The position numbers and the translations under genes were made by a program. Of a stretch of 64,000 nt of DNA, positions 7,940-64,000 are shown one piece after another (the first letter of the stretch is position 1; every line of letters begins with the position of its first letter). The notes beneath the pieces are model-generated. The model was not told where the DNA came from. It did no database searches and saw only the letters and a program-made list of their open reading frames with translations. Origin of the DNA: Acidimicrobiia bacterium (GTDB lineage: Bacteria > Actinomycetota > Acidimicrobiia > Spongiisociales > Spongiisociaceae); the NCBI GenBank assembly GCA_009838635.1, contig VXRE01000049.1, positions 13,349-77,348 of the forward strand, in the 5' to 3' direction.

Positions 7940-8127
7940 TTGCTAGTTGTCGACAGATTGTTGTCTTAGATCAGATCGTTCCAGTGTCCGTGGGTTGATC
8001 GAGTGACCTCATGGGAGGCGGGCCACACCTCACGCGGGCCTTGCACCGTCGTGGATGACAACTGAGATAAATACTCGTCGGCGGATACTTTCGATGCAGA
8101 GGCGGGACGGCGGGTCCGCCGATCTGC

Positions 8128-56273: not shown

Positions 56274-57542
56274 ATGAACGAACTGCTCGCCACGCTCCTT
56301 CCCTCCTTCACCCCCGAGCTCCGGGACGAGATGGTCGGCATGACCTGCGACCTCGTGGACATCCCCAGCCCCACCGGGGAGGAAGGCCCGATCGCCGACT
56401 ACGTGGCCCACCGGTTCCGGGAGATCGACGGGATGGACATCGAACTCCAAGAGGTGGAGCCCGACCGCTACAACGTGATCGGCCGCCTGAGAGGAAGCGG
56501 CCGGGGCCGCAGCCTCCTGCTTGGGGCGCACTTCGACACGGGCATGACCGGGAAGGATCCGGGAATGCCGTTCGGGCTGCTTCCCAAGGCGACGGTCGAG
56601 GACGGCGGCTGGATCTACGGCCTCGGGGTCTCCAACATGAAGTCGGCCTTCGCGGCCTACTACGGGGCCATCCGGGCCGTCCAGGAGGCGGACATCGAGC
56701 TACGGGGCGACATCATCATGGCCGGTGTGATCGGAGAGACCGAGAAGTCCCCCACCGACGAGTTCGCCGGACCGGCCTACCGGGCCGGCGGCTGGGGCAC
56801 CCTTTACGCCGCCCAGCACGGCGTGGTGGCGGACGCGGCCATTCTCGGCGAACCCACCGGGCTGAGGGTCCAGACCGGCAACTCGAGCTACATCTTCGCC
56901 AAGGTCACCACCAGGGGCATCTCCCGCCACACCTGGTCCAAGGAGCACGGTGACGACGCCATCGAGAAGGGGGTCCGGGTGCTGGACGCTCTCCGCGCCT
57001 GGGAACCGGAGTTCGCCGCTTCCCACGCTCACCCCACCATGGGAACGAGGATCGGATTCGGGGCGATCCGCGGCGGGAACCCCTTCCAACCGGCCGTCAA
57101 CCCGGCCCGCAGTTGCACCCTGTACCTCGACTTCCGCTTCCCCCCTACCGCGACCATCATGGAGATCCACCGACAGGTGCGGGGTTTCCTGGATGACCTG
57201 GCCGAGAAGGATCCCGCCCTGGCCACCGAACTCTCCTTCTTCCTGTGCCGCAACGGGTACGAGATCGGCGATGACGAGCCCCTGGTGCGGACGGTGGAGC
57301 GGGCCCATCGCGACGTGTTCGGCACCCCCTCCCACAAAGTGGAGCCGTACCGCTACGACGTGTCAGCCGACACTTCGATCCTCCACGAATACGGCGTGCC
57401 CGCCCTCACCTACGGTCCCGGCGGAATCCGCAAGGACGGCGTCTACGACGTCTACGACCAGTACGGGGAGATCGTCTCGATCGAGAACCTGGTCGATTGC
57501 ACCAAGGTCTACGCCAAGTGCATCGCCGAGATCTGCGGCTAG
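56274..57542 (+). CDS. M20-family metallopeptidase/amidohydrolase (ArgE/DapE/N-carbamoyl-L-amino-acid hydrolase-like)
   Basis: Metal ligands are in ..GAHFDTG.. and ..GETEKS... A dimerisation domain is present. Length is 422 aa, with GAAGGAGAA 6 nt upstream of the ATG. Confidence 0.75.
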   Translation: MNELLATLLPSFTPELRDEMVGMTCDLVDIPSPTGEEGPIADYVAHRFREIDGMDIELQEVEPDRYNVIGRLRGSGRGRSLLLGAHFDTGMTGKDPGMPFGLLPKATVEDGGWIYGLGVSNMKSAFAAYYGAIRAVQEADIELRGDIIMAGVIGETEKSPTDEFAGPAYRAGGWGTLYAAQHGVVADAAILGEPTGLRVQTGNSSYIFAKVTTRGISRHTWSKEHGDDAIEKGVRVLDALRAWEPEFAASHAHPTMGTRIGFGAIRGGNPFQPAVNPARSCTLYLDFRFPPTATIMEIHRQVRGFLDDLAEKDPALATELSFFLCRNGYEIGDDEPLVRTVERAHRDVFGTPSHKVEPYRYDVSADTSILHEYGVPALTYGPGGIRKDGVYDVYDQYGEIVSIENLVDCTKVYAKCIAEICG

Positions 57543-57559
57543 CCGGGATACGCTGACTG

Positions 57560-57569
57560 CTGTATACCG
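57560..57569. promoter_or_regulatory. CTGTATACCG (9/10 match to CTGTATACAG) in the 90-bp spacer upstream of the alpha/beta-hydrolase and hydantoinase genes. This is a putative operator.
   Basis: Read directly. Confidence 0.35.
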
Positions 57570-57632
57570 TATATCCGATCCCTATACTCGCTCCGTGAGC
57601 ACCGCGTCGAAGAGGTTCCTTGGAGGTCGGTC

Positions 57633-58559
57633 GTGAGGGTCGAGGAGGTCTCGTTCTACTCGGAGGGTGATCGCGTTTCGGCGATCCTCCGGCTTCCCGA
57701 CCGACGTGCGGACGCTCCTTACCCGGCTGTTGTCCAAGGGCCCGGCTGGCTGGGTCTCAAGGACGCCCAGCTCTACATCCCCTACCACGAAGCCCTCACC
57801 GCCGCCGGGATCGCGGTCCTCATCTTCGACTTCCGCGGCTTCGGTTCCTCCGAGGGGGCGAGTGACCTCTTGTTGCCCTCGCGCCAGCTGGAGGACCTGA
57901 TCAACGCGGTGACCTACGTCGCGTCGCGATCGGACATCGACGGGGACAGCATCGGCACCTTCGGCAGCGGCGGGACCGGCGGGGGTAACGCCATCATGCT
58001 GGCCGCGGCGGACTCACGCATCCGCTGCGCGGTCTCGCAGGTCCCGGTGGCCGACGGAGAGGACTGGCTGCGGCGGATGCGCCGGGAGTACGAGTGGTAC
58101 GAACTGCTGGAGTCCCTCCGCGCCGACCGGGCCGACCGGGTCCTGACGGGCAAGAGCCGGCTCGTCCATCCCCGCGAGGACATCATGCTCCAGACACCGG
58201 AGCGGAGGACCACGAAGGTGAAGAAGGACGTGGATTCCCGCGTCCCCACCCTGGTGCAGTTACGGAGCGTGGACGGGATACTCGCGTACAAGCCGATCGA
58301 GGTGGTCGGCAGTATCGAAGACGCTCCGCTCCTGATCGTCGGGGTGGAGGACGACCCGGTGACGCCCACCGACCACGCGGTAGCCCTCTACGAGCGCGCC
58401 CGCCCTCCCAAGAAGCTGCTCATGCAACGCCACACCACCCATTACGGCGCCTATGCGCAGTACGCGGACACGGTGGTTCCCCAGATCACCGACTGGTTCG
58501 GCGCGTACCTGCGCAGGGAACCCGTGACGATGGACCACGACCCGGGAGCGACGACATGA
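57633..58559 (+). CDS. Alpha/beta hydrolase (dienelactone-hydrolase / CocE-NonD-like)
   Basis: LIFDFRGFGSSEG is followed by a GSGGTGGG region where a nucleophile elbow is expected. A GTG start lies after GGAGG. Confidence 0.55.
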   Translation: MRVEEVSFYSEGDRVSAILRLPDRRADAPYPAVVQGPGWLGLKDAQLYIPYHEALTAAGIAVLIFDFRGFGSSEGASDLLLPSRQLEDLINAVTYVASRSDIDGDSIGTFGSGGTGGGNAIMLAAADSRIRCAVSQVPVADGEDWLRRMRREYEWYELLESLRADRADRVLTGKSRLVHPREDIMLQTPERRTTKVKKDVDSRVPTLVQLRSVDGILAYKPIEVVGSIEDAPLLIVGVEDDPVTPTDHAVALYERARPPKKLLMQRHTTHYGAYAQYADTVVPQITDWFGAYLRREPVTMDHDPGATT

Positions 58560-59929
58560 CATACGATCTGGCGGTGGTCGGAGGAACCCTCGTATCCGGC
58601 TCGGGCCGGCAGCGGGCGGACATCGGGGTCTCCGGCGGGCGGATCGTCGAGGTAACCACCGGTAACGGAGCCGGCTTGGAGGCGAAGCAGGTGGTGGACG
58701 CCACCGGCAAGCTGGTGCTGCCCGGCATGGTGGACGTCCACGTCCACACCCGGGAGCCCGGCTACACCCACAAGGAAGACCTGATCACCTGCACCGAGGC
58801 CGCTGCCGCCGGCGGGGTGACGACCATCTTCGGGATGCCCAACCTGGATCCCCCCACCGTGACCAGGACGTATCTTGAGGAGGTCCTCGACCTCTACCGG
58901 GCCAGGAGCATCGTGGACTACAACCACAATCCGGTGCCCGCCCACGGCGAGACCGAGGCCATGGCCGCGGCCGGGGTGGCGGCCTTCAAGGTGTACATGG
59001 TGGTGGACACCGGCCGCACTTATCCCCATCCGGCCGGCACGGGGATCCACGACCACGGCCACCTGCTACAGATGTTCGAGGACGTGGAGGAGACGGGACG
59101 GGTGTTCATGGTCCACCCCCACGACCAGGCCCTGATGGATCACGTCGAGCAGGGATACTGGAAGAGGGGGGACCGCAGCCCGGAGGCATACGCCAAGACC
59201 CTGGCCGCGTACGACGGCATCATCTGGGACACCGCCACCGCCACCCTGCTGCGGATGGCCAAGGCCACCGGCTGCCGCCTCCACATCGTCCACGTCCAGA
59301 CCATCGAGGGGATCGAGATGATCCGCCGGGCCAAGGACGAGGGCGTCAGGGTCACGGGCGAGGTGAACCACTGGGCACTGTTCCTCGGCACGTGGAAAGA
59401 CGTGCTCGAGTTAGGGCCCTACTGCCTGTCCTACTGGGTGCCCGACCACCACCGGGCCGCCATCTGGGACGCGCTGGCTGACGGCACGATCGACATCGTC
59501 TCCTCGGATCACGCTCCCCATACCCGGGCGGAGAAGGACGTGGGCTGGGAGGACATGTGGGCCGCCCACACCGGCACTCCCGGAATCCAGCACCAGGTGC
59601 CCCTGCTGCTCGACGCCGCACACGGGGGAAGGCTCACGCTGGAGCGAGTGGTCGAGCTGACGGCCGAAGCGCCCGCCCGGTGCTTCGACATCGGTTCCAA
59701 GGGTTACCTCCGGCCGGGCTTCGACGCCGACCTGCTGATCGTCGACCCCACCAAGAAGTGGACCATCCGCAATGAGGACGTGCTGTCCAAGATCGGATGG
59801 ACCCCCTACGACGGCCGGCAGGTGGTCGGGGCGGTGGAACGCACGTTCCTGAGGGGTGTCGAGATCTACGGTGACGGGACGGTCAAGGGGAGACCAGGAT
59901 TCGGGCGCCACGTGAAACCCAGCGACTAG
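58556..59929 (+). CDS. Cyclic amidohydrolase of the dihydropyrimidinase/hydantoinase/allantoinase family
   Basis: MTYDLAVVGGTLV...PGMVDVHVHTREPG (HxH), the carboxylated-Lys region, and ..SSDHAPH.. are present. Its ATG overlaps the upstream stop (ATGA). Confidence 0.8.
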   Translation: MTYDLAVVGGTLVSGSGRQRADIGVSGGRIVEVTTGNGAGLEAKQVVDATGKLVLPGMVDVHVHTREPGYTHKEDLITCTEAAAAGGVTTIFGMPNLDPPTVTRTYLEEVLDLYRARSIVDYNHNPVPAHGETEAMAAAGVAAFKVYMVVDTGRTYPHPAGTGIHDHGHLLQMFEDVEETGRVFMVHPHDQALMDHVEQGYWKRGDRSPEAYAKTLAAYDGIIWDTATATLLRMAKATGCRLHIVHVQTIEGIEMIRRAKDEGVRVTGEVNHWALFLGTWKDVLELGPYCLSYWVPDHHRAAIWDALADGTIDIVSSDHAPHTRAEKDVGWEDMWAAHTGTPGIQHQVPLLLDAAHGGRLTLERVVELTAEAPARCFDIGSKGYLRPGFDADLLIVDPTKKWTIRNEDVLSKIGWTPYDGRQVVGAVERTFLRGVEIYGDGTVKGRPGFGRHVKPSD

Positions 59930-59942
59930 AAGAGGAACCGTC

Positions 59943-60935
59943 ATGAAATTCGGCCTGCTCCTGCCTCACTTCGGCATGTACGCCAACCGCGAGCGCATCC
60001 TGACCGGTTCCCGGCTCGCCGAAGAGTTGGGATTCGACTCCCTCTGGGTCCGGGACCATCTGGTGTTCGAACCACACGCAGAACTCGAGAACCCCAACAT
60101 CGTCTTCTACGAGGCCCTCGTTACCCTCACCGCGGTCGGCGCCGTAACCGACCGCATCACCTTGGGGACCGGATCCCTCATCCCCTTCCGCCATCCGATC
60201 CACACCGCGCTGTCGGTCGGGTCGCTCGCCCAGCTGGTCGGCGATCGGATCATCCTCGGCTACGGAGCCGGCACCTTCGACCACGAGTTCGAGGCCATCG
60301 GGATGCCGGGCATCTTCCGTCCCGAACTGGTCGAGTCCAACGCCAACATCCTCAAGCGCCTGTTCGCCGAGGACCGGGTCGACTACCAGGATGCCCATTA
60401 CAAGCTGGAGGGGATCTCGATCGAGCCGAAACCCCCCGCTCCGATTCCCTTCTGGTATTGCGGATCGACCCCGGCCTCGGCCCGCAGGGCGGTGCGCTAC
60501 TGCGACGGCTGGATGCCGGGAAGGACCACCCTGCCCACCATCGCCAAGCGGGTGGAGGCGATGGACAAGATGGCGGCCGAGGCAGGCCGCTCCCGGCCTA
60601 CGGTCGCCGTGATCCCCCCGACCTCGATCTCCAAGACCCGCGAGGAGGCGTTCGATGGCCTCAACATCGACGGGCATCGACGCTGGGCGAACGAACGCGG
60701 CATGTGGTGGGTGAAGCCTCCCTCGGGTGTCTTCGAGACGGCCAAGGACATCGAAGGCTCCTTGATAGCGGGGTCACCCGATGACGTGGTGGAGGAGGTC
60801 GTCAAGTTCGCCGCCGTCGAGGTGGAACACCTCGTATTCGACCTCCGGCTCAGGTTCGACCGCTGGTTCGAATCGATAGAGTTGCTCGGCTACCGGGTAC
60901 TCCCGCAGTTGAGGGAGCTGGGCCTGGCGGAGTAA
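59943..60935 (+). CDS. LLM-class flavin/F420-dependent oxidoreductase (copy 3)
   Basis: MKFGLLLPHFGMYAN...GFDSLWVRDH matches the profile of the other two LLM genes. Confidence 0.7.
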   Translation: MKFGLLLPHFGMYANRERILTGSRLAEELGFDSLWVRDHLVFEPHAELENPNIVFYEALVTLTAVGAVTDRITLGTGSLIPFRHPIHTALSVGSLAQLVGDRIILGYGAGTFDHEFEAIGMPGIFRPELVESNANILKRLFAEDRVDYQDAHYKLEGISIEPKPPAPIPFWYCGSTPASARRAVRYCDGWMPGRTTLPTIAKRVEAMDKMAAEAGRSRPTVAVIPPTSISKTREEAFDGLNIDGHRRWANERGMWWVKPPSGVFETAKDIEGSLIAGSPDDVVEEVVKFAAVEVEHLVFDLRLRFDRWFESIELLGYRVLPQLRELGLAE

Positions 60936-61010
60936 CCCGAGGCCAGCCCGGTGCTCGTGCGTTGACGGCGCGGCGTCGTCGGCATTGGAATCAACCGTCT
61001 GGACCGGGTC

Positions 61011-62243
61011 ATGGACTCAGATCTGAACATCGCCGAGCCGGACCTTCCTCCGAGCAAGCCGCTAAGCCTGCTCTTCGGGAGGAACTTCGGACCCTATTTC
61101 CTCGGCAACCTCATGTCGAACATGGGCACCTGGATCCAGAACATCGCCCTCGCGCTCCTGATCTTCCGGCTCACGGGTTCTACCTTCCTGGTCGCGATGA
61201 CGACCTTCTCCCAGTTCCTGGGCATCATCGTCCTCGCCCCTTGGACCGGGTCGGTCGCCGACCGGTTCGACCGGCGCGGCCTGATCGTCCTGACGCAGGT
61301 ACTGGCCACGGCGGCCGGAGGGATGCTGGCGCTGATCACCTATCTGGACCTGGTGACCCCGGCGTGGCTGCTGGGAACGGCTCTCGCTTTCAGCATCACC
61401 AAGGCCTTCGTGCTCCCGGCACAGCAGGCGCTGGTGCCGCAGCTGGTCGAGCGGAAGGACCTGCAGGCTGCGGTGGCCCTGAACGCGATCACCTTCAACC
61501 TGGCCCGAGCCGTCGGACCGGTGATAGGCGCGGGGGTCATCCTGACCCTCGGCTTCACCTGGGCGTTCTCGATCAACGCCCTCTCCTACCTGTCCCTGGC
61601 GGCGGCGGTGATGATCGTCAAGGTCGACCCGCGCAGGCGCCATAGGCCCGCGGAGCGCACCACCCTCAGGGAGACGATCCGCCTGGTCAGGAAGGACCCC
61701 ATCATCGGTCCGCTGCTCATCGCCATCGCCGCCGTCTCGGTAGCGGTCGATCCGGTGAGCAACCTGACCCCGGCGTTCACCGTTGAGATCTACGGGAGGC
61801 CCGACACGTTCACCGGCGTGCTCATCGGGGTGTTCGGCCTGGGTGCAGCGCTCACCGCCGGCCTGGTGATCACCCGGATACGGGCTTCGTTCCGGAGCAT
61901 CGCGCTGGGGATGACCGGGCTGGGCCTGTCGATCGCAGCATTCGGGATGTCCTCCCACCCGAACATGGGTATCGCCGCGCTGTTCGCCGGAGGAATCATG
62001 TACATCGTCTCGGTGAGCCTGTCGACAACCCTGGTGCAGATCAACACGGCGGAAGACCACCGAGGCCGGGTCATGGCCTTGTGGGGCGTGGCCTTCCTGG
62101 GACTCCGGCCCGTGGCCAGCCTCATCGACGGTTCCGTCGCCACCCTCGTCAACGTCAGGGTGGCGGCGCTCGTCATGGCTGTGCCCGTCCTGATCGGGGC
62201 GGCCTCTCTGGCCAGGCATAACAGGCGCTCCGGACAGCCGTAA
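61011..62243 (+). CDS. MFS transporter (12 TM)
   Basis: It is hydrophobic throughout and carries the MFS motif ..DRFDRRGL.. after TM2. Confidence 0.7.
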   Translation: MDSDLNIAEPDLPPSKPLSLLFGRNFGPYFLGNLMSNMGTWIQNIALALLIFRLTGSTFLVAMTTFSQFLGIIVLAPWTGSVADRFDRRGLIVLTQVLATAAGGMLALITYLDLVTPAWLLGTALAFSITKAFVLPAQQALVPQLVERKDLQAAVALNAITFNLARAVGPVIGAGVILTLGFTWAFSINALSYLSLAAAVMIVKVDPRRRHRPAERTTLRETIRLVRKDPIIGPLLIAIAAVSVAVDPVSNLTPAFTVEIYGRPDTFTGVLIGVFGLGAALTAGLVITRIRASFRSIALGMTGLGLSIAAFGMSSHPNMGIAALFAGGIMYIVSVSLSTTLVQINTAEDHRGRVMALWGVAFLGLRPVASLIDGSVATLVNVRVAALVMAVPVLIGAASLARHNRRSGQP

Positions 62244-62420
62244 CCGAGGGCTCGGCGCGAGGTTGATGCTTGAGAAACCCGGCGCCCGCCGCCTCGGTGT
62301 TGACGACGATCCCTGCGTTCCGGGCCGTTTCGAGTAACTTACCTGGGCGGTGAGACAGGTCGTGGTCGCAGTCGCCAGTAGCCCATTCATGCTGGATTGT
62401 CGCCGGTACCGGCTTGGCCG

Positions 62421-63752
62421 ATGATCTGTAGTTTCTGCGGAACCCGGGCGGAAGACGCCGGAAACCTGGTCATGGGCGAGGCCGGCGCCGCCATCTGTGA
62501 TGCCTGCGTGGACCTCGCGGTGGGCCTCGTGCGGGAGCAGGCGACGCCGATCGGCAACATGGTGCTGGACAACATCGGCACGCTGGCTACCAACGATCGG
62601 CGTTTCCCCGGCTTGCTGGGTCTCGTAACGGATGCGGCCGTGGCGATCCGCAACGGCCTGGTGGTCTGGGCCGGGCCCTCGGAACGAACACCCCAGGGAC
62701 TCCGGTCTCTTCCCAGCCTGGACTGCGGGGGTCGGGCGGTGCTTCCGGGACTGGTGGACGCCCACACCCATCTGGCGTTCACAGGCGACCGGAGCGAGGA
62801 GTTCGTGCTCAGGAGCTCCGGCACACCTGAAGCCCGCGCGGTTGCCCGCTCCGGTAGCGCCACGACAGCCCGCCTCAGCCACCTAGCGGATGCCTCCCGG
62901 ATCACCGACGTGATCGGCCGGCGGCTGAACCGCATGCTCGACTTCGGAGTCACCACGGTCGAAGCATCCGGCGGGTATTCGAACGACTACGAAAGGGAGT
63001 TGGCTCTCATCGACACGGTGGTCGAAGCGGGCCGGCGCCACGTGGTTGACCTGGTACCCACGTTCGACGTATCGGGTTTGCCGGTCACCGCATCCGACCG
63101 TTCGAGGACTCTGGATGAGGTGGCCGAGCTACACCTTCCCGTGGCGGCCACGCTGGGAGCCGCGGTGCGGTTGTCGCTCGGATCCGACGCTCTGACCACC
63201 GAGGAGGCACGCCGTCTCATCGGGGTTGCCGCAGGCCTCGGGACCCGAACCCGCATACACCATCGAGGCCAGACCCCGGATGTGTACAGCTTGGCATTGG
63301 AGACCTCCGCCCCGGTGGTCGACCACGCAGGATTTCCCGACCAGGACCAGGCCGGGCAGATGGCCGAAACGGGTATCAGTGTGGTGATCACCCCCACTGC
63401 GGTGCTCGGCACCCGCCGCTCCCCCGCCTCACTTCGCAGGCTGATGGAGAGAGGCGTCCCGTTGGGACTGGGAACCGACTGCAGCCCGGCGCCGGTAATG
63501 GTGGAGTCGCTACCCCTCGCCATCACCCTGGCCGTGACCGAGATGGGGCTGACCTCCGACCAGGCCATCTGGGCGGCGACACTGGGCAGCGCTCGGGCGC
63601 TGGGCCTGGGCGACCGGGGCTGGTTGGGCCACGGCGCGGTGGCCGATCTCGTCGTTCTCGACGCTCCCAGCCCCACCCACCTTCCCTACCGGCCGGGCAC
63701 CAACCTGGTCTGGAAGGTACTCAAGGCAGGCGAGGTGGTGGTCAGCAGGTAA
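62421..63752 (+). CDS. Amidohydrolase (imidazolonepropionase/HutI-like metal-dependent hydrolase) with an N-terminal ClpX-type C4 zinc-finger domain
   Basis: The N-terminus [30 protein letters not shown] matches the ClpX zinc-binding domain (CSFCGK...ICDECVDL). The downstream [13 protein letters not shown] is an HxH amidohydrolase motif. An alternative TTG start lies at 62397. Confidence 0.7.
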
Positions 63753-63793: not shown

Positions 63794-64000
63794 ATGTCCC
63801 TTCCCTCCGCGCTCGGGCACGAGCACCCTATCGGCATGGCGCACCGGGGATCCGGGTTGCTTTGGCCCGAGAACACGATGGTCGCCTTCCAGGGCGCGGT
63901 GGATCTCGGCTACAGATACCTGGAGACCGACCTCCAGATCACCCGGGACGGCATACTGGTCACCATCCACGACGACACGGTCGACCGCACCACCGACGGC
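63794..64000 (+). CDS. Glycerophosphodiester phosphodiesterase (GDPD) family protein, 3' end truncated by the window
   Basis: [51 protein letters not shown] shows the HRG...ENT...ETDL...HD GDPD catalytic motifs. Confidence 0.65.

Follow-up and report, generated by a model that had tools for sequence, protein, structure and literature searches.

A ClpX-type zinc finger joined to a HutI-like amidohydrolase in Acidimicrobiia

The 64-kb stretch of DNA analysed here (hereafter the window), taken from contig VXRE01000049.1 of an Acidimicrobiia bacterium, carries close to its 3′ end a gene whose product joins an N-terminal ClpX-type Cys4 zinc-binding domain (ZBD) to an amidohydrolase of the HutI (imidazolonepropionase) fold. 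A gene for a glycerophosphodiester phosphodiesterase (GDPD) follows on the same strand (Table 1). A preliminary description, made from the sequence of this stretch, had recognized a ClpX-like finger followed by a metal-dependent, imidazolonepropionase-like amidohydrolase instead of an AAA+ module, and had called the fusion unusual. Both domains are textbook ones; their combination is restricted to one lineage, and no paper on a fusion of a ClpX finger with HutI was found in the literature searched. The family is a natural case in which the domain used by ClpX to dock substrates and adaptors has been moved onto a metabolic enzyme.

Table 1. Features of the fusion gene and its surroundings; positions refer to the window and residue numbers to the 443-residue form of the protein.
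Feature	Position	Strand	Basis or detail
ZBD-HutI-like fusion, coding sequence	62421..63752	+	443 residues plus stop; likely ATG start, homologue starts
ClpX-type Cys4 ZBD, residues 1-41	62421..62543	+	PF06689, model, conservation
Finger cysteines C3, C6, C26, C29	codons 62427-29, 62436-38, 62496-98, 62505-07	+	
Short linker TPIGN, residues 42-46	62544..62558	+	AlphaFold helix 27-41, strand 47-56
HutI-fold amidohydrolase domain, residues 47-443	62559..63749	+	Foldseek, phmmer, TIGR01224
Metal-site residues kept	H115 62763-65; H117 62769-71; H280 63258-60; D301-H302 63321-26; D353 63477-79	+	
Pocket changes, B. subtilis > window			Y102>E137, K149>S183, H185>S218, D219>R250, E223>G254
Further pocket changes, B. 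subtilis > window			D251/E252>R282/G283, N326>S355, G328>A357, S329>P358
GDPD gene, 5′ part, cut by the window end	63794..64000	+	tblastn with the GDPD of L002; in-frame ATG 63794
Conserved upstream non-coding stretch	62302..62420	+	alignment with L001 and L008
M20 peptidase	56274-57542	+	upstream cluster
S15/S9-like alpha/beta hydrolase	57633-58559	+	upstream cluster
Dihydroorotase/hydantoinase-like amidohydrolase	~58520-59929	+	upstream cluster
Luciferase-like monooxygenase	59943-60935	+	upstream cluster
MFS_3 transporter	61011-62243	+	upstream cluster

The reading frame and the ClpX-type finger

The open reading frame (ORF) at 62397-63752 on the forward strand was confirmed in the window. 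Read from TTG 62397, it yields its longest form, of 451 amino acids (aa). A start at ATG 62421 (MICSFCG..., 443 aa) is likelier, since close homologues begin with MICSFCG and the related locus L004 has a stop codon five codons upstream of the equivalent Met. The finger lies inside the protein from either start. At the DNA level, the Cys4 motif is in frame with the hydrolase domain, with no stop codon before it, in 15/15 fused sequences (the window and 14 related loci). In L002, the stop codon of hutU overlaps the ATG of the finger as TAATG, which is the usual sign of translational coupling from hutU to the finger ORF. Codon comparison of the window gene with its counterparts in L001 and L008 gave a ratio of non-synonymous to synonymous substitution rates (dN/dS) of 0.15-0.18 for the whole gene, 0.11-0.16 for the finger and 0.15-0.19 for the hydrolase half; both halves of the fusion are under purifying selection.

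These data bear directly on the possibility of an annotation artefact, in which translation would begin at Met26 or Met47 (Met55 of the 451-aa ORF) and the finger would remain untranslated; the preliminary description had named a start downstream of the finger as a ground for refutation. The sequence at Met47 (MVLDNIG) looks like the beginning of unfused HutIs, and 21 public entries are called from the internal Met26 (P0001-P0004, P0006, P0016-P0028, P0034, P0061 and P0121). However, the four cysteines are 100% conserved down to 37% identity, the dN/dS of the finger is low, a stop codon never occurs between finger and barrel, the finger ATG of L002 is coupled to the hutU stop, and a start at Met26 would halve a folded domain. 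A start downstream of the finger is ruled out by this conservation, by the dN/dS values and by the open frame, and an artefact is highly improbable; on these comparisons, the fusion is neither due to chance nor to a misplaced start codon. The Met26 starts are systematic gene-calling errors, which split the Cys4 finger and hide PF06689, and such finger-internal starts need to be corrected in the databases.

A peculiarity of the start region was observed in the 86%-identical orthologue of L008, which contains a 17-nt tandem duplication (GATATGTAGTTTCTGCK x2; 7984-8019) at codon 6. Read from the ATG, the sequence there now gives MICSFC-stop, and no canonical start remains for the main ORF. The duplication is either a very recent disruption or an assembly error in the metagenome-assembled genome.

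Profile, ligands and modelled fold all assign the N-terminus to the ClpX ZBD family. The Pfam profile zf-C4_ClpX (PF06689) matches residues 11-46 of the 451-aa ORF with 41.1 bits (E=1.7e-10, 36/39 profile positions), above its gathering cut-off of 27 bits, and the four cysteines follow the spacing CxxC-(18-20)-CxxC, which is conserved in the relatives. When the first 50 aa were compared with PDB sequences, only ClpX chains were retrieved (1ovx, E=1.9e-5), besides one chance-level match (E=0.77). The AlphaFold model of residues 1-48 has a predicted local distance difference test score (pLDDT) of 86.5 and consists of a beta-hairpin followed by a helix (residues 27-41). It fits the crystal structures 2ds5, 2ds6, 2ds7 and 2ds8 of the E. 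coli ClpX ZBD with a root-mean-square deviation (rmsd) of 0.8-1.0 Å over 39 residues and template-modelling (TM) scores of 0.73-0.88, the identity over the superposed residues being 41%; the next structural matches, RING and GATA fingers, appear only at E ~1. Among 78 fused sequences, which range from 97% to 37% identity, C14, C17, C36, C39 and F16 (ClpX numbering) are 100% conserved, the equivalent of I46 is always L, M, V or I, and the hydrophobic core of the ClpX ZBD is conserved. In the window protein, the equivalents of E. coli ClpX F16 and I46 are F5 and L36. Pfam profile, PDB sequence matches and modelled fold thus agree that the finger noted earlier is a genuine ClpX-type ZBD, and its assignment to another zinc-ribbon family is ruled out.

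In E. coli, the ZBD dimer binds TF, lambdaO, SspB and RssB through the pocket formed by F16 and I46 (PMC7804408). The fused finger resembles the ZBD of ClpX (PF06689; 1OVX, 2DS5-2DS8) in its Cys4 motif, its fold, its core, this pocket and its N-terminal position. It differs in what follows, which is the fold of a metabolic enzyme and not an AAA+ unfoldase; no AAA+ module was found after the finger in Pfam or NCBIfam, as had been proposed initially. Moreover, only 2-5 residues precede the first cysteine in the fused proteins, compared with ~13 in ClpX. The segments after the finger also differ: ClpX has a longer and flexible linker after its ZBD, while in the window protein a linker of ~5 residues joins the finger helix to the first strand of the HutI beta-sandwich. 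Its Thr-Pro pair is 74-78% conserved in the fused family, and the mean pLDDT of the full-length model dips to 67 over residues 31-40.

Stand-alone mini-proteins and accessory domains on cyanobacterial sigma-70 factors (PMC11119718), both of which carry this finger, indicate that it circulates as an independent module outside ClpX. A finger-only search returned 36 candidates, all of which were short proteins or ClpX fragments. The mini-proteins (P0270-P0304, a few of which are ClpX fragments) are 55-86 aa long, read CSFCGK...VAICNECVDLC and lie on long contigs; two of them, P0280 (L088 5001-5204) and P0304 (L089 5001-5198), have in common a Peptidase_S15 gene, a methyltransferase gene and a TetR regulator gene as neighbours. 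In contrast to the window protein, the mini-proteins and the sigma-factor accessory domains have no enzyme domain and a longer lead-in before the first cysteine. No stand-alone finger gene stands beside an unfused hutI in any locus fetched, so that a fusion arising through read-through of a neighbouring mini-gene finds no support. The earlier attribution of adaptor and anti-sigma-factor roles to free-standing ClpX ZBDs received no backing, the mini-proteins and the sigma-factor accessory domain being all that was found.

The HutI-like half and its genomic context

The remainder of the protein is, as first supposed, an imidazolonepropionase-like metal amidohydrolase. Pfam Amidohydro_1 and Amidohydro_3 cover residues 115-449 of the 451-aa ORF, and the best NCBIfam model, hutI (TIGR01224), is matched from position 2 to 377 of 377 with 212.7 bits, the next family reaching 53.7 bits. 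A phmmer search of the PDB retrieved 2bb0 (E=1.4e-42). The full-length AlphaFold model (pLDDT 90.8, predicted TM score 0.87) has HutI entries as its top five Foldseek matches (2g3f, 2bb0, 2gok, 2oof and 2q09; TM 0.79-0.89), and the AlphaFold check suggested at the outset has placed both halves, the finger with the ClpX ZBD crystals and the barrel with HutI. The window protein and the known HutIs (EC 3.5.2.7; B. subtilis 2BB0/2G3F, A. tumefaciens 2GOK/2PUZ, environmental 2OOF/2Q09; TIGR01224) have the same TIM-barrel and beta-sandwich fold, an end-to-end profile match, the same HxH, His and Asp ligands and the same second-shell Asp-His pair. In contrast with these enzymes, the window protein carries a ClpX-type finger at its N-terminus, has 21 conserved positions changed, has no adjoining hutH or hutU, and scores 85 bits short of the equivalog cut-off of TIGR01224 (298.15 bits).

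To describe the active site, homologues were mapped to the numbering of B. subtilis HutI (2bb0). In this numbering, H80, H82, H249 and D324, which we take from 2BB0/2G3F to be the ligands of a mononuclear metal site, together with H272, all have their equivalents in the window protein, as do R89 and Y152. With the catalytic metal site kept in this way, the window protein probably still binds its metal. Unfused bacterial HutIs are nearly invariant at H80, H82, R89, Y102, K149, Y152, H185, D219, [DE]223, H249, D271, H272, D324 and N326, and the core pattern HHRYKYHD[DE]H..HDN is kept in nearly all of them. For the pocket, 159 non-redundant canonical HutIs were compared with 38 non-redundant members of the window clade. 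The pocket residues Y102, K149, H185, D219, [DE]223 and N326 are each conserved in at least 90% of the 159 sequences, and this set is not retained in the window protein: Y102, K149, H185, D219 and N326, each 100% conserved in the canonical enzymes, are all replaced. Counting every position at which canonical HutI reaches 90% conservation or more, the window clade is altered or variable at 21. Only a few of these have settled on one new residue (R219, T294); most differ from subclade to subclade, which resembles a relaxation of constraint on the ancestral pocket more than a clean re-specification.

The genomic context divides the fused genes in the same manner. Around each locus ~±10 kb were inspected, and 62 kb upstream of the gene in the window. 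All six fused loci with the full HutI signature (L002, L003, L010, L011, L013 and L035) have the fusion after hutH and hutU, within 8-10 kb, while hutH and hutU are missing nearby in all eight divergent-pocket loci of the fusion (L001, L004-L009 and the window itself; 6/6 vs 0/8; Fisher exact test, our own calculation, ~3e-4). By tblastn, no match to hutH or hutU was found anywhere in the 64-kb window. The C-terminal part belongs to the HutI fold and lineage but falls short of the equivalog on three counts, in its score, in its otherwise invariant pocket residues and in its hut context. Its proper name is HutI-like and not HutI, and the enzyme half is unlikely to be a canonical imidazolonepropionase. 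Divergent fused genes should not be annotated automatically as imidazolonepropionase.

Downstream, the two groups of fused loci are alike. The GDPD gene starts 41 nt after the stop codon of the fusion, on the same strand, and is a conserved downstream neighbour of fused and unfused hutI in Acidimicrobiia; Pfam GDPD was called in L001, L002, L003, L005 and L006. The order hutI(-like), GDPD and an ORF of ~192 aa without a Pfam family was found in fused and unfused Acidimicrobiia loci alike (the window, L001, L002, L005, L008, L016, L020, L021, L023, L042 and L043), where ~40-250 nt separate hutI(-like) from GDPD. The GDPD gene and the ~192-aa ORF stand immediately downstream in most loci of the canonical as well as the divergent fused group, and several loci also have DUF3237, LeuCD, a Macro-domain gene or an MFS_3 transporter close by. 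On account of these flanking genes in common, canonical and divergent fused genes appear as positional orthologues, and the window gene is best read as orthologous in position to a ZBD-HutI that has lost hutH and hutU from its vicinity. The canonical ZBD-HutIs (P0083 in L002, P0116 in L003, and those of L010, L011, L013 and L035) have the same architecture, linker position and GDPD neighbour as the window gene. They differ from it by a complete HutI signature and by their position directly after hutH and hutU, and are 38-40% identical to the window protein; they represent the probable ancestral form of the window gene.

It could be argued that the window protein is an ordinary imidazolonepropionase (EC 3.5.2.7), to which the finger adds dimer stability only, and that hutH and hutU stand elsewhere in the genome. 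No other family or fold matches nearly as well as HutI, the residues H80, H82, H249, D324, D271-H272, R89 and Y152 are retained, and the fused relatives with a full signature, which sit in hut operons, demonstrate that a finger is compatible with HutI function. We nevertheless find this doubtful, given the score below the equivalog cut-off, the replacement of five invariant residues, several of which vary between subclades, and the lack of hutH and hutU in the 64-kb window and in the ~±10 kb inspected at the seven other divergent fused loci.

The fused family and the possible role of the finger

The fusion is narrowly distributed. When one genome per species was scanned, all loci with a finger were annotated as Acidimicrobiia or Acidimicrobiaceae (L008-L011, L013 and L035); unfused HutIs of other Actinomycetota and of other phyla begin to match at about residue 44 of the query. 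Of the best 150 representatives in a library clustered at 50% identity, only ~5 have a finger. The fusion is therefore unusual, as had been anticipated.

Within the family, the finger is, as judged from the aligned sequences, better conserved than the catalytic pocket. The full HutI signature is kept in 12/79 fused sequences and all four metal ligands plus H272 in 74/79; relatives of the query are over-represented in these counts. In the other 5/79, one or more metal ligands are missing, and P0030 among them looks truncated. In P0075, P0078 (L006 4150-5499), P0138 and P0139, several ligands are lost (HxH is replaced by VxY or DxR, H249 by S or R, and D324 by G or S), and a perfect CSFCGK...AICxEC finger is kept; these four proteins are apparent pseudoenzymes. 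The family thus offers a graded series, which leads from an intact HutI in a hut operon, through an orphaned enzyme with a remodelled pocket such as the window gene, to members without a metal site, the finger being invariant throughout. That a finger outlives the active site would be moderately surprising to a specialist of ClpX or of amidohydrolases.

A first proposal is that the window protein itself is a non-catalytic or ligand-sensing pseudoenzyme, whose HutI barrel would serve as a scaffold or as a small-molecule sensor for finger-mediated regulation. The relaxed constraint on the pocket and the four proteins devoid of HxH, H249 and D324 with intact fingers are in line with it. We consider it unlikely, however: the window protein and 74/79 of the fused sequences keep the four metal ligands plus H272, which argues for metal binding or catalysis, and the hydrolase half has the same dN/dS as the finger.

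A second proposal takes up the link to ClpXP suggested in the preliminary description: the finger could pair with the ZBD of ClpX or compete for its adaptors and substrates, the enzyme being degraded by ClpXP or modulating it. In the ClpX hexamer, however, the ZBDs form constitutive dimers of great stability, into which a foreign finger is unlikely to exchange. Furthermore, no clpX was found in the window or in the loci with called genes listed, most fused fingers have Ala in place of Y34 of ClpX, and the link is drawn purely by analogy. On the other side, the identity to the E. coli ClpX ZBD (41%), the rmsd of 0.8-1.0 Å and the kept F16/I46 pocket (PMC7804408) would suit it, and the retention of the finger where catalytic residues are lost suggests a role in protein interaction. 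Altogether, a connection with ClpXP seems improbable.

The explanation that we favour, and consider on balance probable, is a composite one: a HutI gained a ZBD as a zinc-dependent module for dimerization and docking, and once hutH and hutU had gone from the locus, the protein was retained for a role that depends on the finger. Architecture, fold, conservation, selection, synteny and loss of the HutI signature are the observations on which it stands; zinc binding, dimerization or docking, a change of substrate and the order of events are what we infer from them. In an ancestor belonging to the Acidimicrobiia, a bona fide HutI in a hutH-hutU-hutI-GDPD arrangement would have acquired the finger. 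In several descendant lineages, including that of the window, hutH and hutU would then have been lost from the locus. The imidazolonepropionate pocket would thereafter have come under relaxed or altered constraint, with the finger and most of the fold remaining under purifying selection. The finger would bind one structural zinc, and by analogy with the ZBD of ClpX it may function as a homodimerization and hydrophobic docking module through the F5/L36 pocket. The five-residue linker would set the finger beside the beta-sandwich. The gene would have persisted through a property that depends on the finger, and the enzyme half may hydrolyse a substrate other than 4-imidazolone-5-propionate, perhaps a different amide, or bind a ligand.

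Several points weigh against this composite account. First, hutH, hutU or a second canonical hutI could be present elsewhere in the genomes, beyond the inspected stretches. Second, the roles of the pocket residues are those that we presume from the B. subtilis and A. tumefaciens HutI structures, together with the conservation statistics given above, and the signature counts carry the bias already mentioned. Third, a neighbour-joining (NJ) tree of the hydrolase domain did not yield one clean clade of fused sequences and contains long-branched divergent clades; in this rough tree, the unfused L014 and L019, whose hutI stands directly after hutU, nest among canonical fused sequences, which suggests either a secondary loss of the finger or an error of the tree. 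A single origin of the fusion, read from this tree, was consequently dropped as a claim, the tree being dominated by long branches. Finally, the finger surface is not identical to that of ClpX, since Y34 is Ala in 83% of the fused fingers (78 sequences) and their hairpin contains a one-residue insertion.

A more speculative extension, to which we attach a low probability, would place the family in transition from enzyme to regulator. The HutI barrel would be exapted as a ligand sensor or scaffold, and the finger would capture peptide motifs of the ClpX-ZBD type, the protein acting as a decoy, an anti-adaptor or an adaptor of ClpXP. If true, this would explain why the finger has outlived the catalytic site in P0075, P0078, P0138 and P0139. 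Whichever role applies, the family is a tractable system in which to study what a ClpX ZBD does alone, be it to dimerize, to dock peptides or to sense zinc or redox state, and how an enzyme becomes non-catalytic or re-specified after the loss of its pathway.

Flanking sequence and other observations

Upstream of the fusion, the ~120 nt before the start codon are ~80% conserved with L001 and L008, the closest loci only, despite the different upstream genes of L001. Judged from this alignment, the stretch is probably a lineage-specific promoter and 5′ leader. It has a fold z-score of 0.02, no Rfam family and no sigma-70 or terminator consensus. A riboswitch was rejected, in view of the missing fold signal and Rfam match and of a conservation limited to the three closest loci.

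Antisense ORFs at 62387-62956, 61062-62882 and 62987-63676 were set aside as high-GC artefacts, indirectly, from the sense-frame dN/dS of ~0.15 and the sense-strand homology.

Further upstream, five genes on the same strand (56274-62243; Table 1) resemble a small catabolic island. The L001 orthologue lacks this cluster and is preceded by defence-type genes instead.

Among the HutI homologues, P0135, P0140, P0151, P0165, P0177, P0191 and P0215 (484-679 aa) have a HutI match that starts 80-310 residues into the protein and therefore possess N-terminal extensions; from these match offsets alone, they may be other HutI fusions.

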